Of a DNA stretch of 64,000 bases, positions 25,327 through 63,539 are shown one piece after another. This stretch comes from a bacterium (GTDB lineage Bacteria > Fidelibacterota > UBA2242): the NCBI GenBank assembly GCA_018824205.1, contig JAHJGX010000058.1:54366-118365 (forward strand). Direction: 5' to 3'. Numbering within the stretch: the first letter of the stretch is position 1; every line of letters begins with the position of its first letter. Made by a program: the position numbers and the translations under genes. A model generated the notes under the pieces. It saw nothing but the letters and a program-made list of their open reading frames with translations. It was not told where the DNA came from and did no database searches.

Positions 25327-26031
25327 ATGAAGCATTTATTTGGATATACCCTGCTGATCATGCTGCTGGGACTGCCGGCCCTGGCCGGGGATGAGGCCCA
25401 GCGGCTCTATGACAGCGCACAGTATGAAAACGCGATCCGCAAGTACGACCGTATTCTCAGTGAACATCCCGACTGGGAAGAAGCCCATTTCGGGCGGGGC
25501 GCCGCACTCTATAAAGCGGAACAGATCAACGAGGCCATGCGGGAATTTGAACTGGCGATTCCCAGCAAGAATCCCCGGCAGAAATCCGCCGCCTTTTACA
25601 ACCTGGGCAACGCCTTACTGAAATCCCAGCGCCTGGAGGAGAGCCTGCGCTTCTACAAACGGGCCCTGGAACTGAACTCCCGGGATTACGATGCCAAACA
25701 CAATTTTGAGCTGGCCCGCCAGATGCTGCAACAGGAGCAAGAGCAACAGCAGCAGAATCAGGATCAGCAGAACCAGGAACAACAGGAACAGCAACAGCAA
25801 CAGCAACAGAATCAGCCTGGTCAGCAGAATCAGCAACCCGAACAGAAACAAGAGCAGCAGAAGCAGGAATCCCAGCCTCAGCAGCAGCCCCAGCAACAGA
25901 AACGGGAACAGGAGAAGAGCCAGAAGGAGGCGGCCCAGGTGCTGGATGCGCTGAAGGACACCGAGAAGAAAATGATGCAGGAACGCATGAAAACCAAATA
26001 TTCCGGCATGAAAAAAGAAAAAGATTGGTAA
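25327..26031 (+). CDS. batC: BatC-like TPR-repeat protein with a Q/E-rich low-complexity C-terminal segment
   Basis: Signal peptide and TPR repeats, followed by about 60 aa of poly-Q/E (QQEQEQQQQNQDQQNQEQQEQQQQQQQNQ...). Confidence 0.7.
   Translation: MKHLFGYTLLIMLLGLPALAGDEAQRLYDSAQYENAIRKYDRILSEHPDWEEAHFGRGAALYKAEQINEAMREFELAIPSKNPRQKSAAFYNLGNALLKSQRLEESLRFYKRALELNSRDYDAKHNFELARQMLQQEQEQQQQNQDQQNQEQQEQQQQQQQNQPGQQNQQPEQKQEQQKQESQPQQQPQQQKREQEKSQKEAAQVLDALKDTEKKMMQERMKTKYSGMKKEKDW
25727..25905 (+). repeat. imperfect CAG/CAA/GAA-rich coding repeat encoding the poly-Q/E tract of BatC
   Basis: cagcagcagaatcaggatcagcagaaccaggaacaacaggaacagcaacagcaacagcaacag... Confidence 0.7.
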
Positions 26032-38742: not shown

Positions 38743-39528
38743 ATGCTGGAATTCGATCAGATATATCACCAGGATTGCATTGCCGGGATGCCGCAGATGC
38801 TGGATAATTGCATTGACCTGATTGTCACCGATCCCCCCTTTGCCATCGATTTCAAAGCAGTGCGGGGAAACTATAATCGAAAGGCTTCCCGGGTGTTGGA
38901 GGGATACAATGAAATCACAAAAGCGGATTATTCCGGGTTTACGGTCAGTTGGCTGGAGCAGGCCTGGCGCATTCTGAAACCTACGGGCAGTATGTACGTA
39001 TTTTCCGGCTGGAACAACCTCAAGGATATTCTGGTGGCCCTGGATGAGATCGGTTTTATCACCATCAATCACATTATCTGGAAATATCAGTTCGGAGTGG
39101 TGACCCGGCGAAAATATGTCAGTTCCCACTACCATTGTCTTTACGTCTGTAAGGACGATAAACTGCGCCCCTTTTACCCCTTTTCCCGCTATCAGAAGGA
39201 TGACCGGGACAGCGCCGGCCGCAGTCAGCATTACCGTGACAAAGAGGACGTCTGGACGATCAAGCGGGAGTACTGGGCCGGTGATCAAAAAACCCCCACC
39301 AAACTGCCCCGGGAACTGATTGAGAAAATTTTGAACTATTCCAGCATCCCGGGGGATCTGGTTTGTGACCCCTTTCTCGGCTCGGGCCAGGTGGCCTTTA
39401 TCAGCCGCCTGATGCAGCGCCGCTATATCGGTTTTGAGATTAATAAAGAATACTACGATTTTGCTAAAGCCCGCCTGGACAGCGGCCAGTATCGTCTTAA
39501 AACGACCGATCAGGGAAATCCATTTTAG
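38743..39528 (+). CDS. site-specific DNA methyltransferase, beta-class N6A/N4C type (N6_N4_Mtase family)
   Basis: Catalytic motif IV DPPF near the N-terminus, and SAM-binding motif I (FLGSGQ) near the C-terminus. This is the beta-class order. 261 aa. Confidence 0.8.
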   Translation: MLEFDQIYHQDCIAGMPQMLDNCIDLIVTDPPFAIDFKAVRGNYNRKASRVLEGYNEITKADYSGFTVSWLEQAWRILKPTGSMYVFSGWNNLKDILVALDEIGFITINHIIWKYQFGVVTRRKYVSSHYHCLYVCKDDKLRPFYPFSRYQKDDRDSAGRSQHYRDKEDVWTIKREYWAGDQKTPTKLPRELIEKILNYSSIPGDLVCDPFLGSGQVAFISRLMQRRYIGFEINKEYYDFAKARLDSGQYRLKTTDQGNPF

Positions 39529-39536
39529 TTTTAACA

Positions 39537-40520
39537 ATGGCAATACTATACAGTAGCAAGTGCCGGGACCGGCGACAGATTCTGGAATCCTTTTATCCTT
39601 TCACGAAACCCGCTGTGATTGAAGGGCTGATTATCGGCAATGATCTCGACGCTCTGCTGTCGGCGGCCCTGCTGAAGCAGCGCTACGGCTGGGATGTGGT
39701 GGCGGTTTACGACTATCGGAAACTCTGGGTGGACCAAAGGATTGCTGACAATGTGATTCAAAAACTGAAAAGCGGCGTCTATCTGGCTGTGGACCTGGAT
39801 ATCTACCGCAACGCTGTCCCCAGTATCGGTCATCATATTCTGCAACTCACTGAAAAAGACCGTCTGGAACAGCACGAGCAGACCCTGAATCCCAATCTCA
39901 TTTTCGGCGTGGACTGCCGGAATTTCCGGGCCAAGTATCCCCTGGGAACCATCCATTTTCTGCGCTGGCTCTTTGAAATGGAACTGGATCGCCGGGGCGA
40001 GCTGCTCTGCTGGCTGGCGGATTCCGCCTATATCAATGCCCAGAGCCATCGCTTTCGGGAAAATGTGTCCCATTGGCTCTACGAGTTCTTTGACTGGCCC
40101 CCTTTCTGGGAAATTTTCATCCTGCTGGATTCTGCGGATTATGAGGAACTGTTGGTCCGGGAGATTGGCCGGACTCTGGACAAGATCCTGATCACACCCC
40201 GGCCGGGACAGGTCAAATCCCGGCATAAATCCCTGAACGGCTGGCAGTGCCAGTGGTCGGATCCGGGAACCCAGGGGGAACAAATCCGGCAAATATTTGC
40301 CTTTATTCACGAACTCAGCGGCTGGCGGATTCCGGAATTGCCCAAGTTCTACAGCTGTATTACAGGCCAGCGGAAACGGATTAGCGTGGCGGAACTCCTG
40401 AAAGACTACGGAAGCCTGGATGAATTCCTAAATCGCGAGCATGTTTTTTCATATGCCTTTACCCATGCGCAGCTGCTGAATTATACTCAGTTTTCATCGT
40501 CTCCGGCCGGTAAAACCTAA
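39537..40520 (+). CDS. hypothetical protein (327 aa) immediately downstream of the DNA methyltransferase. Candidate cognate restriction endonuclease or specificity partner (no recognizable motif).
   Basis: Long ORF with coding-like composition. 8 nt downstream of the MTase stop on the same strand. Confidence 0.3.
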   Translation: MAILYSSKCRDRRQILESFYPFTKPAVIEGLIIGNDLDALLSAALLKQRYGWDVVAVYDYRKLWVDQRIADNVIQKLKSGVYLAVDLDIYRNAVPSIGHHILQLTEKDRLEQHEQTLNPNLIFGVDCRNFRAKYPLGTIHFLRWLFEMELDRRGELLCWLADSAYINAQSHRFRENVSHWLYEFFDWPPFWEIFILLDSADYEELLVREIGRTLDKILITPRPGQVKSRHKSLNGWQCQWSDPGTQGEQIRQIFAFIHELSGWRIPELPKFYSCITGQRKRISVAELLKDYGSLDEFLNREHVFSYAFTHAQLLNYTQFSSSPAGKT

Positions 40521-51053: not shown

Positions 51054-51647
51054 ATGAGTATAAAAAAAGATTTCTTTGTTCACGAATCTGCCTATGTGGA
51101 TGATAATGTGACGATCGGCGCGGGGACCAAAATCTGGCACTTTTCCCACATTCAGTCAGGTTCGAAAATCGGCCGGAAGGTCTCCATTGGCCAGAATGTC
51201 AATGTGGGCAATAATGTGAGAATTGGTAATTTTGTGAAGATTCAGAACAATGTCTCGGTCTACGAAGGGGTGACCCTGGAGGATTATGTCTTCTGCGGCC
51301 CCTCCATGGTATTTACCAACGTGATCGATCCCCGCTGCAAATATCCCCAGCGGGGGGCGGAATTTTACCACAAGACCCTGGTGAAAACCGGGGCCTCCAT
51401 CGGTGCCAATGCCACGATCGTTTGCGGCAATATCGTTGGACGGCATGCCTTTATCGGCGCCGGGGCGGTGGTAACCAAAGATGTACCCGATTACGCCCTG
51501 ATGCTGGGAGTGCCAGCGAAACGGGTCGGCTGGGCCTGCGAGTGCGGTGAAATTTTACCGAAGTTTGACCAGCACGTGAACTGTCCACGCTGCGGGATAA
51601 CGTATAAGTTACAGGGAGAAATTCTTATCGCAAAGAGCGCAGAGTAG
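51054..51647 (+). CDS. hexapeptide-repeat sugar N-acetyltransferase (WbpD-like UDP-2-acetamido-3-amino-2,3-dideoxy-uronate N-acetyltransferase family)
   Basis: Left-handed beta-helix hexapeptide repeats (IGxxxxI) throughout, 197 aa. Confidence 0.85.
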   Translation: MSIKKDFFVHESAYVDDNVTIGAGTKIWHFSHIQSGSKIGRKVSIGQNVNVGNNVRIGNFVKIQNNVSVYEGVTLEDYVFCGPSMVFTNVIDPRCKYPQRGAEFYHKTLVKTGASIGANATIVCGNIVGRHAFIGAGAVVTKDVPDYALMLGVPAKRVGWACECGEILPKFDQHVNCPRCGITYKLQGEILIAKSAE

Positions 51648-51670
51648 GCAAAAAACGCAAATCACGATGA

Positions 51671-51726: not shown

Positions 51727-52107
51727 ATGCATGAAAATGAGATATCTAAAATCATTCTCGATTGTGCATTTAAAATCCATACAGACCTTGGTCTTGGATT
51801 ATTTGAATCAGGATATGAGGAAATTTTATATAACGAGCTTGCTAACAAGCAGCTTATCATTGAACGTAAGAAGGTGCTTGCCATTCAATATGGTGGAATT
51901 TAAGTCGAAAATGCGTTTCGGATTGATTTAGTTGTAAATAATAAAGTGATTGTTGAAAAAAAATCAATAGAATCCATTTTACCAGTGCCTAAAAAGCAGT
52001 TATTGACGTATCTTAAATTGTCGGACTTGAAGCTGGGCCTATTAATTAATTTTAATGAAGCCTTCCTGAAAAACGGTATTACAATAATAGTCAATAATCT
52101 GACGTAG
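51727..52107 (+). pseudogene. GxxExxY family protein gene with an in-frame TAA at 51901-51903
   Basis: MHENEISKIILDCAFKIHTDLGLGLFESGYEE...AIQYGGI-TAA-VENAFRIDLVVNNKVIVEKKSIESILPVPKKQLLTYLKLSDLKLGLLINFN. Full-length GxxExxY homology across the stop. Confidence 0.6.
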
Positions 52108-52144
52108 CGAACTTTGTTAACATTGCGTACTTTGCGAAAGATAT

Positions 52145-52237
52145 TATGAAAAACATAGCCCTTATCGGCTGCGGGTGGATTGCCGGGAAACACCTGGAAT
52201 CCATTGCCCCGTTACAGCCTGAAGAGCGCGGACTTTA
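52145..52237 (+). pseudogene. 5' fragment (30 codons) of a Gfo/Idh/MocA oxidoreductase gene paralogous to the 53121 gene
   Basis: MKNIALIGCGWIAGKHLESIAPLQPEERGL* versus MKTIALLGCGRISGKHLESIAQL at 53121. A 27-nt identical stretch (ccgggaaacacctggaatccattgccc) is present. Confidence 0.5.
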
Positions 52238-52290
52238 GCTCGCTCCGGCGGGAAGAAGCCAAAACAGTGCTTTTTGAAACGAACAAAAAG

Positions 52291-52584
52291 ATGATCAACC
52301 GTTATCTCAACGAAATCCGAAAAATAATCGAGAAAGAAATGCAGGATGAAAATGTTGCCATAGCACTTTTTGGCTCTTTTGCCATGGGCACTCAGCAGCT
52401 TGCATCGGATATTGATATTGCACTGATTCCCAAAGGGAAATTGAATAAATCCAAAGTTGCCGATTTACGGGAAAAACTGACCGAACTCACGGTTCCTTAT
52501 TCCGTCGACCTGGTTGATTTTGACCGGGTCTCAGAACAATTCAAGAAAATAGCGTTAAGAGACGCCCAATGGTGGAGGAAGTAG
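52291..52584 (+). CDS. nucleotidyltransferase (MNT-type antitoxin, Pol-beta superfamily)
   Basis: GSxxxG...DxD motif (FGSFAMGTQQLASDIDIAL). The start was reset to MINRY (ATG 52291). Overlaps the downstream HEPN gene. Confidence 0.7.
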   Translation: MINRYLNEIRKIIEKEMQDENVAIALFGSFAMGTQQLASDIDIALIPKGKLNKSKVADLREKLTELTVPYSVDLVDFDRVSEQFKKIALRDAQWWRK

Positions 52585-52973
52585 CCGTGCAGATTATTGT
52601 TGAAAAATTGAAGCAGGCCAAAAATGCGCTGATCACTCTTGAAGAAGCATTGAATGCGGATTTCTCTCGGTTTGTTCAGGATGCTGCCATCCGGCGGTTT
52701 GAATATACCGTGGAAGCGGTCTGGAAGCTGTTGCAGGTCTATCTGAAAGAATCGGAAGGGTTAATCTGTGCTTCGCCTAAATCTGCTCTACGGGACGCCA
52801 AAAAAGTCGGTTTGTTAAATGATTCCGAGACCGAGCGGGCATTAGAAATGATCGATGACCGCAATTTAACATCCCATACGTATCACGCGGAAATTGCGCA
52901 GGCTCTGTTTAAACGCTTAGCTTCCTACTCAGAACTGATGAAACATGTTCTAGAAAGAATTGAGAAAAGCTAA
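52569..52973 (+). CDS. HI0074-family nucleotidyltransferase substrate-binding protein (HEPN/HepT-like toxin component)
   Basis: 134 aa all-alpha protein of the HI0074 type. 16-nt overlap with the MNT gene. Confidence 0.65.
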   Translation: MVEEVAVQIIVEKLKQAKNALITLEEALNADFSRFVQDAAIRRFEYTVEAVWKLLQVYLKESEGLICASPKSALRDAKKVGLLNDSETERALEMIDDRNLTSHTYHAEIAQALFKRLASYSELMKHVLERIEKS

Positions 52974-53120
52974 AACCGCTGGAACTGAGCGGAGCCTGTT
53001 TTCTCAATTGAAACCATTTATATGATTATGTAACTGTCAATGCGACATCGTATAATCGGGTCCAATCCAGTCAGAAATTACCAAGCAAGCATCATCCAAC
53101 TTTATAGACGAGATTAATTC

Positions 53121-54149
53121 ATGAAAACCATTGCCCTACTCGGTTGCGGGCGGATATCCGGGAAACACCTGGAATCCATTGCCCAACTGAAAGACGATTT
53201 GAAACTGGTGGCCGTCTGTGATATTCTCGCAGACCGGGCCCAAGCCGCCGGTGAGAAATACGGGGTCAACTGGTACACCGATTACGATCAGATGCTGGAA
53301 CGGGAGGATCTGGACATCCTGTCCATTTGCACCCCCAGCGGCGTGCATCACCGGCACGGGGTTGCGGCGGCCAAACGGGGTCTGCATGTGATCGTGGAAA
53401 AGCCCATGGCGATTACCCTGGAAGCCGCGGACCAACTGATCCAGGCCTGTGACAAGGCCAAAGTGGAACTGTTCGTGGTGAAACAGAACCGCCTGAACAC
53501 CACCCTGCAGATGCTGAAGCGGGCCGTGGACAAGGGGCGTTTCGGCAAGATCTATATCGCCCAGTCCAACGTCTTCTGGCAACGGCCGCAGAGCTATTAC
53601 GATCTGGCCAAATGGCGGGGGACCTGGGAGTTTGACGGCGGTTCTTTTATGAATCAGGCCAGCCACTACGTGGATGCAATCCAGTGGCTGATCGGTCCTG
53701 TGGAGTATGTCATGGCGGAAACCGCCACCATGGCCCGGCAGATTGAGACCGAAGACACCGGCTCGGCGATCCTGAAATTCCGCAATGGGGTGATCGGGAC
53801 CATCAATGTGACCATGCTGACCTATCCCAAAAACTTCGAGGGTTCGATTACGATCCTCGGGGAGAAGGGCACCGCCAAGGTGGGGGGCGTTGCGGTCAAC
53901 CATATCGATAAATGGGAATTCGAGGATTACGACGACGATGACCGCCTGATCGAGGAATCCAACTACAATCCCCCCAATATTTACGGACTGGGGCACCTGC
54001 CCTATTATAAAAATGTGATCGCCACGCTGAAGGGTGATTCCGATGCCGATACCGACGGCCGCAGCGGGCGCAAGAGTCTGGAATTGATTATCGCGATTTA
54101 CAAATCCGCCCAGCTGGGCAAAAAGATTGCCCTGCCATTGAAGTTATAG
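53121..54149 (+). CDS. Gfo/Idh/MocA family NAD-dependent oxidoreductase (WbpB-like UDP-GlcNAcA 3-dehydrogenase candidate)
   Basis: Rossmann GxGxxG (LLGCGRISGKH) and a C-terminal Gfo/Idh/MocA domain, 342 aa. Confidence 0.85.
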   Translation: MKTIALLGCGRISGKHLESIAQLKDDLKLVAVCDILADRAQAAGEKYGVNWYTDYDQMLEREDLDILSICTPSGVHHRHGVAAAKRGLHVIVEKPMAITLEAADQLIQACDKAKVELFVVKQNRLNTTLQMLKRAVDKGRFGKIYIAQSNVFWQRPQSYYDLAKWRGTWEFDGGSFMNQASHYVDAIQWLIGPVEYVMAETATMARQIETEDTGSAILKFRNGVIGTINVTMLTYPKNFEGSITILGEKGTAKVGGVAVNHIDKWEFEDYDDDDRLIEESNYNPPNIYGLGHLPYYKNVIATLKGDSDADTDGRSGRKSLELIIAIYKSAQLGKKIALPLKL

Positions 54150-55785: not shown

Positions 55786-56355
55786 ATGAACAGATCTGAA
55801 AATCCATTAGTCGCGGCGTTGCGGACCATTGTCCGCTGGCTGGATAATGAGAAGATTGATTATATGGTTTTTGGGGGGATTGCCAACAGTATATACGGAA
55901 ACCCGCGCCAGACATTTGATATTGATGTAAAAATTATTTTAGAACCGCAAACAGTGAGTACTCCTTTTATTAAAGCGATCCAAAGGATTGCGGAGATTCT
56001 GCCGGCCGATCCGGCAGCGTTTCTCGCTGAGACCCATGTCTTGCCGGTGCGGGTGGGGGGCGTCCCGGTGGATATTGTCCTGGCCGAGTTATCTTATGAA
56101 ACCGATGCGATTCGTCGGGCGCTAACGCTTGAGTATGCCGGGATCGCGTTCAGAGTGTGCACTCCTGAGGATTTGATCATTCAAAAAGCTGTTTCTGAAC
56201 GTCGTAAAGATTGGGATGATATTGAGATTATCATCCAGCGCCAGTCCGCCAATTTAGACCGGGACTATTTGCTGAAACATTGTCGGGACTTAAGCGATTT
56301 TTTGGAGCGCCCGGACATTTTCAATAGGGTGCAGAGTTTGCTCAATGAGGCCTGA
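55786..56355 (+). CDS. putative nucleotidyltransferase-fold protein (Pol-beta-like GG...DIDV motif)
   Basis: MVFGGIANSIYGNPRQTFDIDVKI resembles an NTase GS/GG-x9-13-DxD core. 189 aa. Confidence 0.4.
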   Translation: MNRSENPLVAALRTIVRWLDNEKIDYMVFGGIANSIYGNPRQTFDIDVKIILEPQTVSTPFIKAIQRIAEILPADPAAFLAETHVLPVRVGGVPVDIVLAELSYETDAIRRALTLEYAGIAFRVCTPEDLIIQKAVSERRKDWDDIEIIIQRQSANLDRDYLLKHCRDLSDFLERPDIFNRVQSLLNEA

Positions 56356-56620
56356 ATATCAGGAAAATTTGAAACGCATGACCCGCTTCAATGAATGGGA
56401 GGAGCGCTCGCGCAGTCAATTGACGGTGCAAGCCAAACTCGATCAGTTTCTGGTCCTCTATGGACTCTGGGATTTCGTTCCGGAAAATATCCGGGAAAAA
56501 GTCCACGCTGAACATGTGGCGGCCCTCTGCCGGGTCCAAAAACGTCTGAAGGAAGCCGGTGAATTGCGAAAATTCAATAAGCAATTAAATCAGGAAAACA
56601 AGCAAAGGGAAATGAAGTGA
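56345..56620 (+). CDS. hypothetical small protein (91 aa) overlapping the upstream NTase-like gene by 11 nt
   Basis: ORF with charged helical character, translationally coupled to 55786-56355 and to gmd. Confidence 0.3.
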
Positions 56621-57657
56621 AAAAAGCGCTTATTACCGGTATCACCGGTCAGGACGGCTCCTACCTTACCGAGTTATTGCTTGAAAAAGACTATGAAGTC
56701 CATGGCATTATCCGCCGCAGCAGTTCCTTTAATACCGGTCGAATCGACCACCTATTCAATAATCCGGAAATTTACGGTAAAAAACTGTTCCTGCATTATG
56801 GAGATCTGACAGATTCCAGTAATTTGAACCGTCTGCTGGATAAAACCGAACCCGACGAGATTTATAACCTCGGCGCCCAGAGCCATGTGTTGGTATCTTT
56901 TGAAGTCCCTGAATATACGGCCGAAGTTGACGGTGTCGGGGTTTTACGTTTTCTTGATGCCATTAAAGAAGGCGGACTCAGGACCAGATTCTATCAAGCC
57001 TCCACCAGTGAACAGTTCGGTAAGGTTCAGGAAATACCCCAGACCGAAACAACACCCTTTTATCCCCGATCGCCCTACGGGGTTGCCAAACTCTATGCCT
57101 ATTGGATTGTTAAAAACTATCGGGAAGCCTATAATTTATTTGCCTGTAACGGTATTTTATTTAACCACGAATCTCCCCGCCGGGGTGAGACATTTGTGAC
57201 CCGGAAAATAACCCGCGCAGCCGCTCGCATAAAAGCCGGATTACAGGATAAACTGTTACTGGGCAATCTGGATGCCAAACGGGATTGGGGCTATGCCCCT
57301 GAATATGTGGGAGCCATGTGGCGGATGCTCCAGCAGGATCAGCCGGAAGATTTTGTGATTGCCACCGGTGAAACGCATTCGGTCCGGGAATTTTGTCTGA
57401 ACGCCTTTGCCGAACTCGGGATGAACATTCATTGGCAGGGCCAGGGTGTCGCCGAAAAGGGGATTGACTCGAAAACCAGCAAGACACTGATCGAAATTAA
57501 TCCCCGCTACTTCAGACCCACAGAGGTGGATCTGTTGATTGGTGATTATAGCAAAGCCAAAGAAAAACTGGGCTGGCAGCCGACTATGAAATTCGAAGAG
57601 TTAGCCCGCATGATGGCTCGCAGCGACTACGAAAAAGTGTTGAAAAGAGGATTCTGA
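56617..57657 (+). CDS. gmd: GDP-mannose 4,6-dehydratase
   Basis: N-terminal [19 protein letters not shown] and SDR YxxxK catalytic motifs. GTG start overlaps the upstream stop. Confidence 0.95.
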
Positions 57658-57773
57658 ACTACTAATTACGCTAATTTCACTAAAAATATGTATAATAAAA
57701 ACAATTCGCGTAAATCCGTGTAATTCGTAGTTATAAAACTATTAAAGTAATCCGTGTAATTCGTAGTTTAAAA
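57656..57773 (+). repeat. repeat family B, copy 1 (includes an internal tandem duplication of the 3' core aatccgtgtaattcgtagtt)
   Basis: aactactaattacgctaatttcactaaaaa...aattcgcgtaaatccgtgtaattcgtagtt is shared with copy 2 almost base for base. Confidence 0.6.
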
Positions 57774-58154
57774 ATGGAAAATTTGGTATTCAAAGAAGAG
57801 AGTTTTAAAATAATCGGCGCCTGTATGGAAGTGCATAAAGTGCTCGGTCCCGGCTTTTTAGAATCCGTTTACCAGGAGGCATTAGCCATTGAATTCAGTC
57901 ATCAGGGAATTCCCTTCGAACAAGAAAAAGAATTAACAATTACTTTCAAAGGTATTGAACTTGAAAAAAAATATAATGCTGATTTTGTATGTTACGGAAA
58001 AATAATCCTCGAAACGAAGGCTGTAAAAGAACTATGCGATAATCACCGAGCGCAGATCATAAATTACCTCAAAGTCACAAAATTCAAACTCGGTTTACTC
58101 GTTAACTTTGGAGAACAATCCTTAAAATATGAACGCTTTATCAATGAAAAATAA
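57774..58154 (+). CDS. GxxExxY family protein (intact copy)
   Basis: 126 aa: ...KIIGACMEVHKVLGPGFLESVYQEAL...AQIINYLKVTKFKLGLLVNF. Confidence 0.7.
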   Translation: MENLVFKEESFKIIGACMEVHKVLGPGFLESVYQEALAIEFSHQGIPFEQEKELTITFKGIELEKKYNADFVCYGKIILETKAVKELCDNHRAQIINYLKVTKFKLGLLVNFGEQSLKYERFINEK

Positions 58155-58157
58155 TCA

Positions 58158-58245
58158 AACTACTAATTACGCTAATTTCACTAAAAAAAAGAATAATAAA
58201 GATAATTCGCGTAAATCCGTGTAATTCGTAGTTAAAAGGATTTAT
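58158..58245 (+). repeat. repeat family B, copy 2
   Basis: aaactactaattacgctaatttcactaaaaaaaagaataataaagataattcgcgtaaatccgtgtaattcgtagttaaaagg. Confidence 0.6.
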
Positions 58246-58435
58246 ATGAAGAAAGCACTCATCACCCCGATACGCTTCGTTACTGGGCAGGCGCTTCGCC
58301 TCCCCCTATCCCATTATGCTCATTCTTCGCTACGGGACAGGCAGGGCAAGACCGCATCATCTGCCGGACTAGTTCCTTTAACACTGGCAGAAGCGATTAT
58401 ATTTTCACAATCAATAATTATCAAGGATAACCAAC

Positions 58436-58729
58436 ATGAACAAGGATGAAATAATTCAGATTTTAAAAGAAAATAAAAAGGTCATGACTGATCAGTACGG
58501 TATAATCCAAATCGGTATTTTCGGCAGCTATGTACACAGCCTACAAAATGAGGGAAGCGATATCGATATCGCAATAGAAATGACCAAAGAAAAAAAGAAT
58601 CTCCACAATTTCCTGGCTCTAAAACGATTCCTGGAACAACAACTGGGGAGAAATGTTGACCTGGGTTTTAAGCACTCCCTAAAACCGACAGTTAGCAATT
58701 ATATTGAAGCAACCATAATATATGTCTGA
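58436..58729 (+). CDS. nucleotidyltransferase (MNT-type antitoxin)
   Basis: GS-x10-DID motif (FGSYVHSLQNEGSDIDIAI), 97 aa. Confidence 0.7.
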   Translation: MNKDEIIQILKENKKVMTDQYGIIQIGIFGSYVHSLQNEGSDIDIAIEMTKEKKNLHNFLALKRFLEQQLGRNVDLGFKHSLKPTVSNYIEATIIYV

Positions 58730-59069
58730 TATATCTAAGAAAGATCAATTATATCTGGATGATATTCTTGAATCGGCGCAAGCAATTCAAGGATATGTTG
58801 AAAACATTGATTTGCTAACTTTTATTAAAGACCGAAAAACATATTCTGCTACTATCCGTGAGTTTCAGATAATTGGCGAAGCTGTCAATAATCTTTCTGA
58901 CGATATTAAGAGCAACTACCCGAAAACAGCGTGGCAGGATATTAAAGATTTTCGGAATATTTTAATTCATGAATACTTTGGAATTGATCTGGAACTTGTC
59001 TGGAATGTTATTCAGGAAGATCTGCCTGAATTAATCAATATTGCTAAAGAGATAAAAAAGAGCCTTTGA
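58722..59069 (+). CDS. HepT-like HEPN toxin (DUF86 family)
   Basis: R-x4-6-H HEPN motif (RNILIHEY) near the C-terminus. 8-nt overlap with the MNT gene. Confidence 0.7.
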   Translation: MSDISKKDQLYLDDILESAQAIQGYVENIDLLTFIKDRKTYSATIREFQIIGEAVNNLSDDIKSNYPKTAWQDIKDFRNILIHEYFGIDLELVWNVIQEDLPELINIAKEIKKSL

Positions 59070-59179
59070 CAAAGATTTTTTCTTCCTCGCCACGCCCGCC
59101 CAGAATTATCTCTCGCCCGCCTGACTTCGTCTTTCGGGCAGGCAGAGTCCGCAAAGCAGAAAGTTAGTAAGTAGGATGG

Positions 59180-59293
59180 TTTAAACTACTAATTTCGCAG
59201 ATTAAGCGAATTAAGAAAAATAAAAATTAGTGTAATCCGTGTAATTCGTAGTTAAAAAATCTCTGTATAATTCGTAGTTAAAAGGTTCTTCTT
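59180..59293 (+). repeat. repeat family B, copy 3 (divergent 5' part, tandem core copy)
   Basis: tttaaactactaatttcgc...gtaatccgtgtaattcgtagttaaaaaatctctgtataattcgtagttaaaagg directly upstream of fcl. Confidence 0.55.
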
Positions 59294-60256
59294 ATGGAAA
59301 AGAATTCCAAGATTTACATCGCCGGTAATACCGGTCTGGTGGGATCCGCTTTAGTCCGTAAATTCACCTCCGAGGGCTACACCAACCTCGTTTTCACTCC
59401 CTATCCCGAATATGATCTCCGCAAGCAGCCACAGACGACTGATTTTTTCGAACGTGAAAAACCGGAATATGTCATCATTGCGGCTGGCAAGGTGGGTGGG
59501 ATTATCGCCAATAACAGCTATCGCGCCGAATTCATTTACGATAATATTATGATCGCATCCAATATCATTCATGCGGCCTATCTAAGCAAAGTAAAACAAT
59601 TAATTTTTCTGGGCAGTTCCTGTATCTATCCGAAAAATTGTCCGCAGCCGATGAAAGAAGAATATCTGCTGACGGGCCCCCTGGAACCGACCAATGAGCC
59701 CTATGGGATTGCGAAAATTGCCGGTATCAAGCTCTGTGAAAGTTATTACCGCCAGTACGGCTGCAATTTCTATTCAGTCATGCCCACGAATCTGTATGGC
59801 CCTAACGATAACTTCGATTTGGAAACGTCCCATGTTCTGCCGGCCTTAGTCAGGAAATTTCATGAAGCCAAAATAAAAAATAATAAGGAAGTTACTATCT
59901 GGGGGACCGGCCAGCCCCGGAGGGAATTTCTGCATGTTGATGATCTGGCTGATGCCATTCTATTTCTATGTTTAAACATCAATTCGGAAGAGATATTTAA
60001 ACAGGGCATTAGTCATCTGAATATTGGATCCGGCGAAGAAATATCCATATCTAAATTAGCAGAATTGATTAAAAAAACAGTGGGGTTTACTGGTCAAATC
60101 CAATTTGATGAATCAAAGCCCGATGGAATGCTCAGAAAATTGTTATCAAGCGCACGATTAAACGAACTTGGCTGGGAAAAAACGATTACAATGGAAGTCG
60201 GAATTTTAAAATTATATGAATGGTATTTAAAGAGTTCCCAGAACCGACATTCTTGA
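59294..60256 (+). CDS. fcl: GDP-L-fucose synthase (GDP-4-keto-6-deoxy-D-mannose 3,5-epimerase/4-reductase)
   Basis: N-terminal IYIAGNTGLVGSAL, SDR-fold catalytic Y...K, 320 aa. Paired with gmd. Confidence 0.9.
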   Translation: MEKNSKIYIAGNTGLVGSALVRKFTSEGYTNLVFTPYPEYDLRKQPQTTDFFEREKPEYVIIAAGKVGGIIANNSYRAEFIYDNIMIASNIIHAAYLSKVKQLIFLGSSCIYPKNCPQPMKEEYLLTGPLEPTNEPYGIAKIAGIKLCESYYRQYGCNFYSVMPTNLYGPNDNFDLETSHVLPALVRKFHEAKIKNNKEVTIWGTGQPRREFLHVDDLADAILFLCLNINSEEIFKQGISHLNIGSGEEISISKLAELIKKTVGFTGQIQFDESKPDGMLRKLLSSARLNELGWEKTITMEVGILKLYEWYLKSSQNRHS

Positions 60257-60418
60257 TCTGTGCCGGCAATGAACGGGAAAATGAACCCAAAGGTTTTCAA
60301 TGGCGCCTGTGAATTGCGAAAATTCAATCAATAAGTCATTCAATCGGGTAAACACCACAATGGCATTATCAAGGACAAGCCAGATGAACAAGAATGAAAT
60401 CATGGATGTGTTAATTTC

Positions 60419-61424: not shown

Positions 61425-61796
61425 ATGCTTTTATTAATCGATAAAAAAATAGATACCATAACGATCCTGAAATTATGCCAGGCCCATTTTGGTAATTTCA
61501 TTAAGTTTGTGGCTGATATTGACCGGAAGGTAATCGCCGCTGGCGGTGAGATGCATGCCGATGCAGAAGTATTACTATTAAATAATGGGTCAAAACAGGT
61601 ATCCTTGTGGGGCGCCAACCTGTATCCTGAGAATGAACCGGAAAAACGGATTGAATTTGAATCCTTTATCAATATCCGTCCATTGGACGATAATATGGCG
61701 CTGACAGTTCAGAATGCGGAAATCCGGCATAAAATAAAAAACCTTGTCGAGGCTCTGTTATTATCTCCTGAAGAGCTTATTCAACTTGAGGATTAA
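61425..61796 (+). CDS. DUF5674-like protein
   Basis: 123 aa. The pattern ...HFGNFIKFVADIDRKVIAAGGEMHADAEVLLLNNGSKQVSLWGANLYPE resembles the DUF5674 family. Confidence 0.4.
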   Translation: MLLLIDKKIDTITILKLCQAHFGNFIKFVADIDRKVIAAGGEMHADAEVLLLNNGSKQVSLWGANLYPENEPEKRIEFESFINIRPLDDNMALTVQNAEIRHKIKNLVEALLLSPEELIQLED

Positions 61797-62164
61797 TGCC
61801 CATTTATCATAAAACATTGCAGGATCGATTTGGCACATTTCCCCAAGCGCAACAGATATTAATGATCTGCAATGAATTGAACCGGGCCGGGACCCAGGCA
61901 GAAAGATTTGACTATTACCAACATCATATAATCCTGGCTATGGAGCTGCTGGATTTTTTAATACGTGACCAAAAGTGGGCACCCAAATATAGAGAAATTT
62001 TGAGAGCCCGGGAAATGCTGGGGCAGTATTACTTGTCTTCGGATAAGGATCTGAAAAAATATACTGATAATCTTATTAAATTGTCTCCGGAAGCCTTCCG
62101 GATGCTGAAACCAAGCAAGCCAATAGAGATAATTTCAGGAGCAATTCAGGCAGACAAAACTTAG
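61796..62164 (+). CDS. hypothetical protein (122 aa)
   Basis: ORF translationally coupled to the upstream gene (ATGCCC overlap at 61796). No recognizable motif. Confidence 0.35.
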   Translation: MPIYHKTLQDRFGTFPQAQQILMICNELNRAGTQAERFDYYQHHIILAMELLDFLIRDQKWAPKYREILRAREMLGQYYLSSDKDLKKYTDNLIKLSPEAFRMLKPSKPIEIISGAIQADKT

Positions 62165-62174
62165 TGGAATCTTC

Positions 62175-63539
62175 ATGCAAAACCACATAACTGAAATTAT
62201 CAATAACGGGGAAGATCAACAGTCAGAGTTTAAGCCGAACTTCAGTAAGGAACTTATTGAAACTGTGGGTGCATTTTCTAATTCAAGGGGCGGGAAAATT
62301 CTCGTTGGTGTTAACGACTCCGGGCAAATAACGGGCGTCAACGCAAATGAAGAAATTATCAAAGACTGGATGAACAACATTAAGTTGGATACCCAACCCC
62401 AGTTGTTTCCCTCAATGAACCTCATTGACGTTGATAATAAGACGGTTGTTGAAATTTCGGTGCCGGAATATCCTCTCAAACCAGTATCATACAAGGGACG
62501 GTATTATAATAGAACGGGTGCGTCTAACCATCTGGTTCCATTGAATGAAATTGTGGAAATGCAATTGAATAGCCTCAACAGCTCTTTTGATTCCTTTCCG
62601 GTTTCTGAATCGATTGATGATCTTTTACCCGATGTTATCGTATCCTACTTTCGCGAGGTGAAAAACAGGGGACGTATTGAATTGTCCGATAACAATCGGT
62701 TAAATCTTGAAAAAACGGGATTTATTCGGAAGGGTAAAATATCATTTGCAGCTCTATTGATGTTTGGAGAACACCATATGGGGATTCATATTGGTCGCTT
62801 TAAAACTCCCGATGTGATCATTGATGATATTTTGATTAAATCACCGCTGGTGAATGCAATTAATGATGCAATGAGCTTTATTAAGAAAAACATTAGTGTC
62901 GCTTTTGAGTTTACAAACGATACCCGTAGAGTTGAAAAATGGCAATATCCGTTGCCGGTAATTAGAGAATTATTATTAAATGCCGTGATTCACAAAGATT
63001 ACCGTAATCCAACCGATATCATCATTAAAATTTATGATCACAAAATTGAGATTACGAATCCCGGTAGCCTGATGGGTGGGTTAACGCCTGAAGATTTACA
63101 GACCGATCATTATATTGCCGTTCATAGAAACAAACTTCTGGCTGAAGCTTTCTATCTGCGAGGTGATGTTGAGAAATATGGAACCGGGTTTATTCGAATC
63201 AGGGAGTTTCTGCGCGATTGTCCAGAAGTAACGCTAGACGTAAATCCGCAGGGGGATTTTATCCGGACAATATTAGCTGATAAAAAGCTTACCCCGCATG
63301 ATACCCCGCAAGTTGAAAAACTTATAGCGGTCATGCTTGGATCGATGAAACGGGATGAGTTGCAGAACAAATTAGAATTAGCAGATCGTGAATATTTTAG
63401 AAAATATTATTTGATACCTGCTCTGAATTCCGGGTTGATAGAGATGACAATTCCGGGCAAACCTAAGAGTAAAAACCAGAAATACAGACTGACGGATAGC
63501 GGTAAACTGATACTGGAAATGAACAGGAATAGTGGATAA
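62175..63539 (+). CDS. AlbA_2 (Schlafen-like divergent AAA) domain + HATPase_c_4 domain protein. Putative ATP-binding transcriptional regulator / RecG-C-terminal-like.
   Basis: N-terminal AlbA_2 signature (EDQQSEFKPNFS...ETVGAFSNSRGGKILVGVND) and a C-terminal HATPase-like region (LLLNAVIHKDY...GTGF). 454 aa. Confidence 0.6.
   Translation: MQNHITEIINNGEDQQSEFKPNFSKELIETVGAFSNSRGGKILVGVNDSGQITGVNANEEIIKDWMNNIKLDTQPQLFPSMNLIDVDNKTVVEISVPEYPLKPVSYKGRYYNRTGASNHLVPLNEIVEMQLNSLNSSFDSFPVSESIDDLLPDVIVSYFREVKNRGRIELSDNNRLNLEKTGFIRKGKISFAALLMFGEHHMGIHIGRFKTPDVIIDDILIKSPLVNAINDAMSFIKKNISVAFEFTNDTRRVEKWQYPLPVIRELLLNAVIHKDYRNPTDIIIKIYDHKIEITNPGSLMGGLTPEDLQTDHYIAVHRNKLLAEAFYLRGDVEKYGTGFIRIREFLRDCPEVTLDVNPQGDFIRTILADKKLTPHDTPQVEKLIAVMLGSMKRDELQNKLELADREYFRKYYLIPALNSGLIEMTIPGKPKSKNQKYRLTDSGKLILEMNRNSG

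Follow-up and report, generated by a model that had tools for sequence, protein, structure and literature searches.

Foldback repeats between gmd and fcl suggest a previously undescribed type of small DNA element that moves or recombines

Introduction

REP sequences and REPIN-RAYT systems are present in tens to hundreds of dispersed copies per genome, carry a terminal GTAG or CGTC and have a cognate RAYT of the HUH/Y1 type (PMC3116915, PMC3337134, PMC3733652). MITEs and mobile insertion cassettes (MICs) are bounded by terminal inverted repeats, lack a transposase and occur with or without cargo (PMC10969869).

Here, we compare with these and other systems three AT-rich repeats, E1, E2 and E3, found in a 64,000-nucleotide stretch of bacterial DNA (the window). 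An earlier sequence-only reading had described them as a repeat family upstream of three consecutive start codons and had offered three roles for them: a shared promoter or 5' leader, a recombination site used by mobile cassettes, or an antitermination leader. Each of E1 to E3 is a foldback inverted repeat, a point which that reading overlooked and which changes which known systems serve for comparison. The repeats mark the joints of two foreign cassettes wedged between two sugar-biosynthesis genes, and our analysis suggests that they belong to a type of small DNA element, mobile or recombining, that has not been described before.

Structure of the repeats and their cassettes

E1 (57657-57773), E2 (58158-58245) and E3 (59180-59293) have a GC content of 25%, and all three are intergenic, on the sense strand of a co-directional string of genes. 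With up to three mismatches, the 26-nt core matches the plus strand of the window four times (57713, 57749, 58214 and 59234), compared to none expected from 100 shuffles, so the reported family upstream of three ATGs is real. The 13-mer GTAATTCGTAGTT matches the plus strand five times with up to two mismatches (57720, 57756, 58221, 59241 and 59267); the chance expectation is 0.83 for both strands combined. Given these counts, the tandem duplication of the 3' core that had been reported in the first and third copies is also real. GTAATTCGTAGTT also matches the minus strand, at 57657, 58158 and 59184, which shows that the 5' half (AACTACTAATTAC...) repeats the 3' core (...GTAATTCGTAGTT) in inverted, complementary form. 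Complementarity between the arms of E1 to E3 is approximately 80%. A gene-less, or solo, element consists of two arms of about 30 bp with three 9-10-bp sub-repeats each, a short A-rich loop and a 12-14-nt tail.

Some details of the sequence-only reading can be made more precise. The copies had been placed 0-10 nt before the start codons; the measured distances from the final GTAGTT to the ATG are 5 nt (57774), 12 nt (58246) and 14 nt (59294). The 5' half had been called conserved, which holds for E1 and E2, whose 31-nt 5' halves are common with 0-1 mismatch; E3 has a diverged version. Since E1 and E2 are 93% identical over 80 nt, the GxxExxY gene is, as claimed, flanked by direct repeats.

The features of the locus and of a second GxxExxY site in the window are as follows.

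51623-51652, plus strand: type-A left arm, upstream of the second GxxExxY (pseudo)gene
51739-52097, plus strand: second GxxExxY gene, sharing 38% identity with the first; a pseudogene interrupted by an in-frame stop
52113-52141, plus strand: type-A right arm; 5 nt separate it from the start codon of a duplicated GFO/IDH/MocA 5' fragment
56617-57657, plus strand: gmd (GDP-mannose 4,6-dehydratase), the upstream host gene (Pfam GDP_Man_Dehyd, E=2e-155)
57657-57686, plus strand: E1 left arm AACTACTAATTACGCTAATTTCACTAAAAA, three sub-repeats of about 10 nt
57705-57732, plus strand: E1 right arm copy a TTCGCGTAAATCCGTGTAATTCGTAGTT, inverted partner of the E1 left arm
57741-57768, plus strand: E1 right arm copy b, in which the distal part of the arm is duplicated, ending 5 nt from the GxxExxY ATG
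57774-58154, plus strand: cassette 1, intact GxxExxY / PDDEXK_3 gene (Pfam E=3.5e-42, TIGR04256 E=4.9e-46)
58158-58187, plus strand: E2 left arm, starting 3 nt past the GxxExxY stop
58206-58233, plus strand: E2 right arm, identical to E1 right arm copy a
58234-58245, plus strand: E2 tail AAAAGGATTTAT, with SD-like AAGGA 5 nt before the ATG at 58246
58246-58449, plus strand: start of cassette 2, decayed gmd 5' fragment ("orf67", MKKALIT...), without a family match
58436-58729, plus strand: cassette 2, MntA-like nucleotidyltransferase antitoxin
58722-59069, plus strand: cassette 2, HepT-like RNase toxin
59142-59163, plus strand: relic left arm of the "type A" (GCAAAG) hairpin family, just before E3
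59180-59212, plus strand: E3 left arm, diverged version TTTAAACTACTAATTTCGCAGATTAAGCGAATT
59225-59253, plus strand: E3 right arm copy a
59259-59279, plus strand: E3 right arm copy b ATCTCTGTATAATTCGTAGTT
59280-59293, plus strand: E3 tail AAAAGGTTCTTCTT, abutting the fcl ATG
59294-60256, plus strand: fcl (GDP-fucose synthase-type epimerase/reductase), the downstream host gene

The gmd stop codon, TGA, overlaps the first base of E1. From there to fcl, E1 to E3 split the spacer into two low-GC cassettes, one with the GxxExxY gene and the other with the gmd relic, MntA and HepT; the GC content of this region is 0.34-0.40, compared to 0.5-0.59 in the host genes. The short open reading frame at 58246 noted in the sequence-only reading is no separate gene but the decayed 5' fragment of a gmd gene. 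In the lineage of the window, the GxxExxY gene lies between two complete solos, with a right arm upstream and a left arm downstream, rather than within one hairpin. The second GxxExxY gene of the window, bracketed by type-A arms, has the "gene inside hairpin" layout.

The family is absent from the rest of the window, with three copies within 1.7 kb and none in the remaining 62 kb. Within this 64-kb stretch, E is not a high-copy dispersed repeat.

The 126-aa GxxExxY protein is predicted to be a PD-(D/E)XK nuclease of minimal, Cas4/RecB-like form. Residues D70, E80, K82, Q94 and Y98 are invariant in the alignment, and the catalytic D-E-K and QxxxY motifs are intact. The AF2 model has a pLDDT of 93.3, and its best Foldseek matches in the PDB are Cas4 SSO0001, lambda exonuclease and RecE. 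We know of no strand-transfer activity for a PD-(D/E)XK protein of this size.

Hairpin arms around GxxExxY genes in other genomes

Hairpin arms are associated with GxxExxY genes well beyond the window. We aligned the 120 nt upstream of GxxExxY genes to the reverse complement of the 120 nt downstream in 68 non-redundant metagenomic loci, with a score threshold of at least 14. This score was reached in 30 of 68 loci, compared to 4 of 68 when the flanks came from different loci and 0 of 68 when they were shuffled, and the result was confirmed on repeat. One arm upstream and the other downstream of the gene is the commonest layout; in a Paludibacter MAG (L001), the gene is flanked by AACTACGAATTAC.../...GTAATTCGTAGTT. 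Arm sequences differ between loci and match within a locus, where they are 87% complementary over 943 positions. Their identity to themselves rises to 0.54 at a lag of 9 and 0.39 at a lag of 10, whereas other lags give about 0.25. Solo hairpins, with arms but no gene, are found as well, and locus L057 contains a tandem array of solos of about 98 nt in which a GxxExxY gene replaces the loop of one unit. To judge from these sequence comparisons, E1 to E3 belong to a type of hairpin-forming inverted repeat that surrounds small GxxExxY nuclease genes in many bacteria, and are copies of it that lack the gene.

GxxExxY genes and their neighbors are largely co-directional: this holds for 60 of 65 upstream neighbors, at a median distance of 89 nt, and for 52 of 60 downstream neighbors, at a median distance of 63.5 nt. 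In the GTDB representative set, an exact 20-nt core was found in 13 other FCB-group genomes, against 1-3 matches or so expected by chance, and it is identical across several families in two phyla. In other genomes, this core is found 3' of genes, in the gap between convergent ones, or antisense to them.

Homology breakpoints and possible cassette exchange

Breakpoints of homology coincide with E. The blocks shared with loci L025-L031 and L045 end at E, and the right end of E with its tail is joined to truncated GxxExxY genes (two breakpoints), an internal gmd fragment or the fcl ATG. The E3 tail is joined to unrelated sequences in relatives, and the junction of E to the gmd fragment seen at 58246 recurs in L025, L026, L030 and L045/46. 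Short-read assemblies also break inside E elements: MAG, ENA and JGI contigs with these genes have an end or a start within E3, and Logan contigs and other short ones stop within E1 or E2. Every contig of the source species has either the same arrangement or a break at E. No pair with presence and absence at an orthologous site was recovered among the contigs compared; L109 resembles the product of a deletion between E1 and E2 but may be a k=31 assembly chimera.

Hairpin families are interchangeable around one cassette. The block at 58242-59099, containing the gmd fragment, MntA and HepT, is 98% identical in L106 and L108, where it lies between type-A hairpins; in both, a complete type-A hairpin follows the cassette at the point that corresponds to the relic arm at 59142-59163. 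One toxin-antitoxin block can therefore carry arms of type A or type B, and hairpin family and cargo are not strictly linked. Likewise, the GxxExxY gene of L025 is 88% identical to that of the window and has a different upstream arm. This loose linkage argues against a strictly cognate pair of nuclease and arm.

E1 is identical at 113 of 116 positions (97.4%), loop included, between the window and L028, at the junction of gmd and the GxxExxY gene, whereas the flanking coding sequence is 75-77% identical. On sequence grounds, E1 would seem to be under purifying selection for a role in regulation or binding, which a recombination substrate need not show. One interpretation is that E is a binding array for a nucleoid or regulatory protein of the host, with inverted sub-repeats as sites and without a role in mobility. 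A period of 9-10 bp, about one helical turn, three units per arm and a 20-nt core shared by two phyla are consistent with this. However, sub-repeat sequences differ within a single genome (type A, type B and others that flank IVP genes), so one host factor would not recognize all of them, and the elements sit where rearrangements have their breakpoints and where foreign low-GC DNA ends. We consider such an array very unlikely.

Expression and RNA-level alternatives

The main idea of the sequence-only reading was that E acts as a promoter, a 5' leader with a translation-initiation region, or both, travelling with cassettes and driving or restoring expression of the next gene. In the window, 0-14 nt separate the end of the right arm or tail from each of three ATGs, and in relatives there are 1-5 nt between the right arm and the ATG of gmd or of a GxxExxY gene. 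Tails carry AAGG or AAGGA 5-9 nt before two of the three ATGs, the A/T-rich loops contain TATAAT (E1) or GATAAT (E2; TTCACT-18-GATAAT), and the conservation of E1 above its coding flanks would fit as well. Nevertheless, sigma-70-like promoter matches are not enriched (13, compared to 9.7 +/- 3.3 expected), and only 15 of 40 genes have an SD-like motif in front of them, the background being 19%. The sequence TAATTCGT, loosely likened to a Bacteroidota-type -7 box in that reading, does not fit TAnnTTTG; it and TAATTTCA agree with TTTG at 1-2 of 4 positions, and no suitably spaced TTTG is present for the -33 box. A promoter would also be at odds with the placement of the core elsewhere, and leaves unexplained both the arms on the two sides of GxxExxY genes and the solo arrays of L057. 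This explanation appears unlikely.

The third proposal, an antitermination leader of the JUMPstart/UpxY type, found no support: GGCGGTAG occurs in the window only at 26432 and 29021, with no ops near E, E is internal to the locus, and no NusG/KOW match was found among the scanned window ORFs. No intrinsic terminator-like site was found within E1, E2 or E3, whose AT-rich stems are followed by an A-run.

Alternatively, E could punctuate operons at the RNA level, the hairpins serving in polycistronic mRNA as sites for RNase III or E, as barriers to 3'-5' exonucleases that set the stability of segments, or as a means of looping out an ORF, as in REP elements or rRNA intervening sequences. The sense-strand position of all three copies in co-directional genes is in keeping with this, as are compensatory changes in 5 of 10 consensus pairs and the layout of an ORF in the loop of a long inverted repeat, which is that of 23S rRNA intervening sequences (IVSs) and also of the IVP genes of the same genome. 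Compared to shuffled versions, E1 has the more stable fold (-22.9 kcal/mol, z = -3.2), but E2 and E3 do not (z = -1.5 and -1.2), and the RNAalifold consensus stem amounts to only -2.5 kcal/mol. Orientation relative to genes is mixed in other genomes, and the sub-repeats within an arm resemble one another, which base pairing does not require. Rfam 15 gave no window match at the gathering score and only chance matches (snoRNA, miRNA, mcrA) at E <= 10 in 57600-59350. Mismatches between arms follow random expectation, with 18 G:T, 21 A:C and 82 others in brackets and 20, 30 and 62 in solos. Thus, G:U is not in excess over A:C on the sense strand, and about two-thirds of bracket mismatches and more than half of solo mismatches are of types beyond wobble pairing. 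The lack of RNA-wobble bias suggests that E acts at the level of DNA rather than RNA, and we regard RNA punctuation as quite improbable.

Discussion

We favor, with about an even chance of being correct, the explanation that E is a DNA-level, REP/MITE-like portable junction at which low-GC selfish cassettes are inserted, deleted, duplicated and swapped inside co-directional operons. The breakpoints at E, the swap of hairpin families in L106 and L108 and the 30 of 68 bracketed loci support the earlier suggestion of a recombination site for the GxxExxY and toxin-antitoxin cassettes. Weighing against this explanation are the strong conservation of E1, the loose link between hairpin family and cargo, the place of the window GxxExxY gene between two complete solos and the low copy number in the 64 kb. 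Cassettes may be exchanged by recombination between near-identical copies of E, through breaks at the arms, or both. The GxxExxY nuclease could make these breaks in a homing-like manner, with solos as its targets or remnants, and a terminator-free hairpin with an A-rich/AAGG tail at the next ATG would keep the host operon expressed. A scan of 46 window ORFs revealed no integrase, transposase or other recombinase, and for the genes of the 3.7 kb that follow the window (L020), the precomputed Pfam annotation lists no recombinase either.

A bolder reading, which we put forward tentatively and hold to be possible rather than probable, is that GxxExxY proteins are the enzymes of an unrecognized class of foldback elements, a PD-(D/E)XK counterpart of RAYT-REPIN. 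The nuclease would recognize the sub-repeats or the extruded hairpin and cut solos, and its gene, or other cargo between matching arms, would be copied into the loop by recombinational repair ("hairpin homing"). If so, solos such as E1 to E3 would be non-autonomous partners and landing pads, and operon spacers, notably in polysaccharide loci, would become integrase-free cassette arrays.

Among known systems, integron cassettes, attC sites and CALINs also pair each ORF with an imperfect palindrome (60-140 bp) behind it, with the next start codon a few nt after the previous palindrome. In the window lineage, the unit is an ORF whose stop codon is followed, at a distance of 0-3 nt, by an imperfect palindrome of about 76-80 bp, and the next ATG lies 1-14 nt further on. 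The co-directional array and toxin-antitoxin pairs among the cargo are shared with integron cassettes, the palindrome varies in sequence between cassettes while its architecture is kept, and the termini are of the form ...AAC / GTT... (for example, TTTAAAC ... GTTAAAA in E3). E might accordingly be read as an integron-like attC, the 3' site of promoterless cassettes served by a tyrosine recombinase encoded elsewhere in the genome, in a CALIN-like array within a polysaccharide locus. However, housekeeping genes are interleaved with the cassettes here, and no intI (Phage_integrase) with attI and Pc was found among the 46 window ORFs or in the L020 downstream annotation. The termini have at least one mismatch to the consensus RYYYAAC / GTTRRRY and pair with one another at 4-6 of the 7 positions, and sub-repeats of 9-10 bp are foreign to attC. 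The dominant layout elsewhere places the gene inside the palindrome and tandem solo arrays exist, neither of which is known to us for attC. An attC identity is most improbable.

The IVSs of 23S rRNA, with an S23p / 23S_rRNA_IVP ORF, resemble E in having a small ORF in the loop of a long AT-rich inverted repeat. In the same genome (L020), two IVP genes lie between sulfate-assimilation genes and are bracketed by their own inverted sub-repeat arms. The IVS lies in helix 25/45 of the rRNA and is excised by RNase III, whereas E lies in spacers of mRNA operons between protein-coding genes, its arms bear no sign of selection for RNA pairing, and an Rfam scan found no rRNA in the 64-kb window.

Like E, MITEs and MICs have terminal inverted repeats with internal sub-repeats, occur in gene-less and cargo-bearing forms with the same ends, insert in intergenic spacers and cause assemblies to break at their copies. 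Unlike them, the window lineage has its cargo between two complete elements rather than inside one. As to a target-site duplication, the flanks carry no consistent direct repeat; the palindrome often continues outward (for example, TTAACC...GGTTAA), a pattern indistinguishable from a palindromic duplication of TA/TTAA. Neither the scanned window ORFs nor the frequent neighbor families include a transposase, and we know of no insertion sequence whose ends match E and of no cognate transposase.

Compared to REP sequences, which are dispersed in many copies and have a GC-rich stem of 20-40 bp, E is of low copy number and clustered in the window (three within 1.7 kb), with arms of about 30 bp, 25% GC and three sub-repeats of 9-10 bp. 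Of the sub-families, only that of the window has a terminal GTAG, within GTAGTT; related elements have GTGGTT, GTGGAC, GTGTTC or GTAC. RAYT is a single-copy HUH/Y1 enzyme, whereas the enclosed GxxExxY genes are of the PD-(D/E)XK type, multi-copy and patchy; Y1_Tnp was found neither in the 46 window ORFs nor in the top 25 families of each neighbor set (63 upstream, 58 downstream). E nevertheless shares with REP/BIME elements and the REPIN-RAYT systems ("REPtrons") of Proteobacteria the form of short, imperfect intergenic palindromes that occur singly or in tandem, and the array in L057 resembles a BIME. As with GxxExxY genes, the REPIN-RAYT arrangement consists of a gene for a nucleic-acid-cutting enzyme flanked by inverted repeat copies, with gene-less copies elsewhere.

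Results

Three foldback elements between gmd and fcl

The three repeats that lie between gmd and fcl, here called E1, E2 and E3, are each a foldback inverted repeat. The sequence-only reading had described near-identical copies immediately upstream of three ATG codons, with a tandem duplication of the 3' core in the first and third. This description is correct and far above chance, and the point that it missed is the foldback. The elements and the genes around them are as follows; the region read for element anatomy was 57400-59500.

51623-51652 and 52113-52141: arms of type A (GCAAAG/CTTTGC), another hairpin family, enclosing a GxxExxY pseudogene at 51739-52097
56617-57657: gmd
57657-57773: E1, AT-rich (25% GC)
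57774-58154: GxxExxY/PDDEXK_3 gene, between E1 and E2
58158-58245: E2, AT-rich (25% GC)
58246-58449: 'orf67', a 67-aa ORF between E2 and MntA
58436-58729: MntA
58722-59069: HepT, followed by E3
59180-59293: E3, AT-rich (25% GC)
59294-60256: fcl, after E3

The 26-nt core, the conserved 3' part of the element, occurs in four copies at three mismatches or fewer in the window, compared to none in shuffles. The final GTAGTT stops 5 nt short of the ATG at 57774, 12 nt short of that at 58246 and 14 nt short of that at 59294. The 13-mer GTAATTCGTAGTT has five plus-strand matches, including the duplicated pairs in E1 and E3. The conservation claimed for the 5' half holds for E1 and E2, which have 31 nt of it in common and are 93% identical across 80 nt. 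Searches with the core, the 13-mer and the 5' half found no further copies of this family in the 64-kb window. Minus-strand matches of the 13-mer at 57657, 58158 and 59184 show that the 3' core, GTAATT(C)GTAGTT, returns in inverted-complement form at the 5' end, as AACTAC(T)AATTAC. An element therefore comprises a left arm (approximately 30 nt), a loop rich in A (15-25 nt), a right arm (approximately 28 nt; partially duplicated in E1 and E3) and a tail (5-14 nt) reaching the next ATG.

Inverted repeats enclose GxxExxY genes

E1, E2 and E3 are solo (gene-less) members of a class of inverted repeats that encloses GxxExxY genes, because matched arms bracket these genes across loci and gene-less copies occur as well. 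We retrieved 80 metagenomic loci encoding relatives of the window's GxxExxY protein at 52-88% identity; as relatives of one query (at least 52% identity) they are phylogenetically non-independent, and many of these contigs are short. When their flanks were read, matched inverted arms were seen to enclose the gene in most loci, as in GTCCACGAATTACACTAATTTCACGGATTAT, gene, ATAATCAGCGAAATTAGTGTAATTAGTGGAC. For 68 non-redundant loci, the upstream 120 nt were aligned with the reverse complement of the downstream 120 nt, giving a mean score of 14.5 within the same locus compared to 8.7 for flanks of different loci and 7.6 for shuffles. A score of at least 14, an arbitrary threshold controlled by permutation and shuffling, was reached in 30/68 same-locus comparisons versus 4/68 between loci and 0/68 after shuffling, and a repeat run confirmed this result. 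The arm sequences vary among loci (CACGAAT, CACAGAT, CACGGAT, CACTAAT, CGCTAAAG, CGCGGAAT, ACGAAG and others), and the two arms of one locus are 87% complementary (943 positions). Within arms there are short sub-repeats, with a self-identity of 0.54 at lag 9 and 0.39 at lag 10 compared to approximately 0.25 at other lags.

A profile search for hairpins recovered many gene-less solos in GxxExxY loci. The clearest case is L057, a locus with a tandem array of approximately 98-nt solos, 4 before and 3.5 after the GxxExxY gene, which replaces the 30-nt loop of one unit. In the lineage of the window, two complete solos flank the gene, which is not inside either of them. The GxxExxY pseudogene at 51739-52097 is 38% identical to the intact gene and has an in-frame stop near 51901; its type-A arms overlap the end of a hexapeptide-transferase gene and finish 5 nt before the next ATG. 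Some assemblies annotate it as a 58-aa fragment. Bracketed GxxExxY genes are also carried by a Treponema replicon and a Prevotella replicon.

The neighbors of GxxExxY genes are mostly co-directional (60/65 upstream, at a median gap of 89 nt, and 52/60 downstream, at a median of 63.5 nt) and are rich in nucleotide-sugar and polysaccharide functions, namely GDP_Man_Dehyd (14/63 upstream), Epimerase (11/58 downstream), RmlD, Wzm/Wzt, RfbC and DegT. This bias toward polysaccharide operons may be a true site preference or may reflect shared descent among the sampled relatives. Strikingly many bracketed genes in L025-L104 are found within such operons: in the gmd-fcl and wzm-wzt intervals, ahead of rfbC, and beside DegT aminotransferases.

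A second small-gene family with a gene-in-hairpin architecture is represented by two 23S_rRNA_IVP (four-helix-bundle, Avd-like) genes, 2.7-4.2 kb past the right end of the window in L020 (6683-7048 and 7836-8195), a contig that extends the window. They are placed between ATP-sulfurylase, APS-kinase and CitMHS genes, each with its own inverted sub-repeat arms (cattgctgattgctg / cagcaatgaacaatg and aatgagtaatgagtaat / tcactcattactga).

The element core in other genomes

A search beyond the window found the exact 20-nt core in 13 genomes of the GTDB representative set, compared to approximately 1-3 expected by chance according to our own estimate. The carriers are Paludibacter, Prevotellaceae, Muribaculaceae, other Bacteroidales, Flavobacteriales and one Neomarinimicrobiota, and in each match ACGAATTAC / ATTCGTG units crowd the flanks of the core. 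It has no uniform placement with respect to genes: in four loci (L001, L004, L008 and L010) it precedes an ATG by 25-41 nt, in L012 it lies between convergent genes, and in L005, L009 and L011 it is downstream of genes or antisense. L001 encodes a GxxExxY protein with 56% identity to that of the window; AACTACGAATTAC, 24 nt and GTAATTCGTAGTT lie directly upstream of the gene and copies of the right arm downstream.

The GxxExxY protein carries a nuclease signature

The function of the GxxExxY/PDDEXK_3 family has been given as 'unknown' (PMC3424549), and we found no paper on its genomic setting. The family is very large, a single search having returned 4284 relatives at E <= 1e-5. The window's protein has no sequence relative in the PDB. 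Its AF2 model is confident (pLDDT 93.3), and among PDB structures it is most similar to Cas4 SSO0001, lambda exonuclease, RecE, MGME1 and the AdnAB nuclease domain. Residues D70, E80, K82, Q94 and Y98 are invariant among 40 relatives. These residues form the combination of D...ExK and QxxxY that is the signature of RecB/Cas4-type nucleases.

Membership in a defense system was considered, and PADLOC gave no match. A phage or plasmid vehicle was rejected as well: the core is absent from IMG/VR, and 50,697 phage records contained no GxxExxY match. PLSDB gave only 8 GxxExxY matches, most on very large replicons (seven records are not phage-sized, six of them 0.4-1.6 Mb).

The repeat is read as a DNA-level feature

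RNA folding was clearly better than in shuffles for E1 (z = -3.2) and not better for E2 (z = -1.5) and E3 (z = -1.2). Mismatches between the arms of brackets (G:T 18, A:C 21, other 82) fit a random 1:1:4 split, and in solos (G:T 20, A:C 30, other 62) wobble-type mismatches are somewhat commoner than random. There, however, A:C outnumbers G:T, so neither set displays tolerance for sense-strand G:U. For 18 solos, RNAalifold gives a consensus stem with 10 pairs and -2.5 kcal/mol, and the likeness of the three sub-repeats inside one arm is superfluous for pairing. Rfam gave nothing relevant at the gathering score or at E <= 10, and a terminator scan found no terminator-like site within the elements. 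Because sub-repeat periods of 9 versus 10 nt put the elements out of register, column-wise covariation over arms of all flavors was dropped in favor of the within- versus between-locus permutation. With the wobble test negative and the consensus weak, selection on RNA structure was rejected. In view of these results we regard the repeat as a feature of the DNA, one that either resembles a transposon end or forms an array for protein binding. A resemblance of the sub-repeats to DnaA boxes was rejected, since by eye at most 6/9 positions match.

Cassette boundaries coincide with E

Comparison of the window with its closest loci (L025-L031 and L045/46) reveals blocks of homology bounded by E. In that lineage, the left arm begins 0-3 nt past the GxxExxY stop codon or right at the gmd stop. 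The right arm with its tail, AAAAG[GA]TTCTTCT, adjoins sequences unrelated to one another: two different truncation points of GxxExxY genes (in L025, L027, L030 and, twice, L028), an internal gmd fragment (L026) and, in the window, the fcl ATG; in L045 a gmd fragment follows the arm directly, without this tail. After E, short 5' fragments of gmd are present in the window as well as in L025, L026, L030 and L045/46. Judging from its sequence, 'orf67' is such a decayed 5' piece of gmd, starting MKKALIT...: its segment 58354-58407 is approximately 77% identical to gmd 56705-56758 by hand count and 72% over 54 nt in a repeat search. Its middle carries an unrelated GC-rich insert. The whole inserted stretch between gmd and fcl has a GC content of 0.34-0.40, compared to 0.5-0.59 in the adjacent host genes.

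The hairpin family around one cassette has been exchanged. The block 58242-59099, which contains the gmd relic, MntA and HepT, recurs with 98% identity in L106 and L108, where it lies between type-A hairpins, and the window retains a relic of a type-A left arm at 59142-59163, directly before E3. Cargo and hairpin family are thus not strictly linked.

Assembly breakpoints fall at the same places. MAG, ENA and JGI contigs with these genes stop at 59209-59237 or begin at 59083-59102, and k141 (MEGAHIT-style) contigs from independent assemblies overlap by exactly 141 nt, 59083-59223, which comprises the HepT-distal spacer and the left arm of E3. This exact overlap indicates that 59083-59223 occurs in two or more contexts across the populations sampled; no other context was recovered among the contigs found. 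Logan and other short contigs break inside E1 and E2. Positions 1-70 of L109, a Logan contig (SRR26275510), join the E1 loop to the 3' flank of E2. This could be the product expected of recombination between E1 and E2 with deletion of the GxxExxY gene, or equally an assembly chimera. Logan contigs are assembled at k=31 and E1 and E2 have an exact 31-mer in common, so L109 was rejected as proof and is not relied on here. Exact-protein look-ups of GxxExxY, fcl, HepT and gmd returned the same arrangement or contigs broken at E, with no empty site among them, and no consistent pattern of target-site duplication was found.

E1 of the window is identical to that of L028 at 113/116 positions, at the same gmd/GxxExxY junction, and the flanking genes are only 76.9% (gmd) and 75.3% (GxxExxY) identical, with 51-55% identity at third codon positions. 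Such conservation might result from purifying selection on the whole element or from short-tract conversion from a shared pool; either would account for it. It also keeps alive the alternative that E is an expression module, a regulatory leader or promoter-type unit, as the sequence-only reading had suggested, against which a promoter scan found no enrichment of promoter-like sites. The proposal of a JUMPstart-type antitermination leader gained no support, as ops/JUMPstart is absent near the elements.

Other features of the window

Elsewhere the window is ordinary chromosome (DnaB, RelA/SpoT, Lnt, FtsK, BatA-D, GcvT, Wzz and others) and encodes T9SS sorting domains, by which the organism belongs to the FCB group. 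The first 64 nt of a GFO/IDH/MocA gene (53121) are duplicated at 52146-52209 with 88% identity; a second nucleotidyltransferase/HepT-like pair (52291-52973) and then the intact gene follow. The stretch 52146-53184 looks like a TA cassette insertion that duplicated the 5' end of its target gene, as is also the pattern of the gmd relic preceding MntA/HepT. The spacer from fcl to the MTHFR gene contains two relics: 60286-60342, with approximately 72% identity to the 3' end (56536-56592) of the 91-aa ORF that precedes gmd, and 60365-60414, which matches the start of MntA (58417-58466) with 78% identity. Both appear to be remains of earlier cassettes. Two further two-gene modules are wedged among biosynthesis genes: a DUF2204/DUF6036 nucleotidyltransferase with the 91-aa ORF, which overlaps the gmd start (55786-56620), and DUF5674 with a 122-aa ORF that has no family (61425-62164), the latter followed by a Schlafen/AlbA_2-HATPase_c_4-Fic-like_C protein (62175-63539).

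Small GC-rich palindromes (ctcgcccgcctga...tcgggcaggcagag; cctgccccgta...tac(c/t)ggggcg) lie inside or beside AT-rich hairpins at 59112-59147 and in the flanks of L025, L028, L035 and L036, forming a second mini-repeat family unrelated to the hairpins. A CAG/CAA-rich (glutamine-rich) coding repeat occupies 25717-25925 within an ORF (25327-26031) of the BatA-D-type cluster. The stretch 38743-40520 contains an N6_N4 DNA methylase gene and, after it, a 327-aa ORF without a Pfam family; the two may be a restriction-modification pair.

Discussion

The sequences compared here show the anatomy of E, the association of such arms with GxxExxY genes, breakpoints that coincide with E, and the exchange of hairpin families around a single cassette. 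They best support reading E as a foldback of the REP/MITE kind that would join small selfish cassettes. Cassettes would be exchanged by recombination between copies of E, by nuclease-made breaks, or by both, and the GxxExxY protein may be the nuclease making those breaks at E. A hairpin free of terminators, followed by an A-rich/AAGG tail, could sustain translation of the downstream gene. Some observations sit uneasily with this reading: the near-identity of E1 in the window and L028, the loose pairing of cargo and hairpin family, the position of the gene between two whole solos in the window lineage, and the failure to recover either an empty/occupied pair or a target-site duplication.

Enclosure by matched inverted repeats, together with the gene-less copies, allows the GxxExxY family to be put to the test as a selfish or mobile element, and biochemistry now has a concrete substrate and a concrete protein. 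Bracketing explains the small AT-rich genes and TA pairs wedged between co-transcribed biosynthesis genes, as well as the fragmentation of MAG assemblies at these loci. It also explains how small cassettes could enter, leave and be reordered within surface-polysaccharide loci with no integrase involved. If E is instead a regulatory leader, its 97% conservation where the flanks have diverged to saturation marks out a non-coding signal under strong constraint, in a phylum about which little is known.

We found no publication on these repeats or on their link to GxxExxY. The 46 window ORFs scanned, the L020 extension and the commonest GxxExxY-neighbor families contained no integrase, transposase or RAYT gene. 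Integron attC sites resemble the window-lineage layout of E, but no IntI is encoded among the window ORFs scanned and the core sites fit only in part. REP/BIME and REPIN-RAYT systems are nearest to E in logic; however, their defining RAYT gene is missing at E and the repeat anatomy is unlike. MITEs and mobile insertion cassettes are nearest in form, although no transposase or target-site duplication is known for E. The intervening sequences of 23S rRNA genes that carry an S23p ORF have in common with this class the layout of an ORF in a hairpin loop, and the source genome also has IVP genes with bracketing sub-repeat arms of their own.
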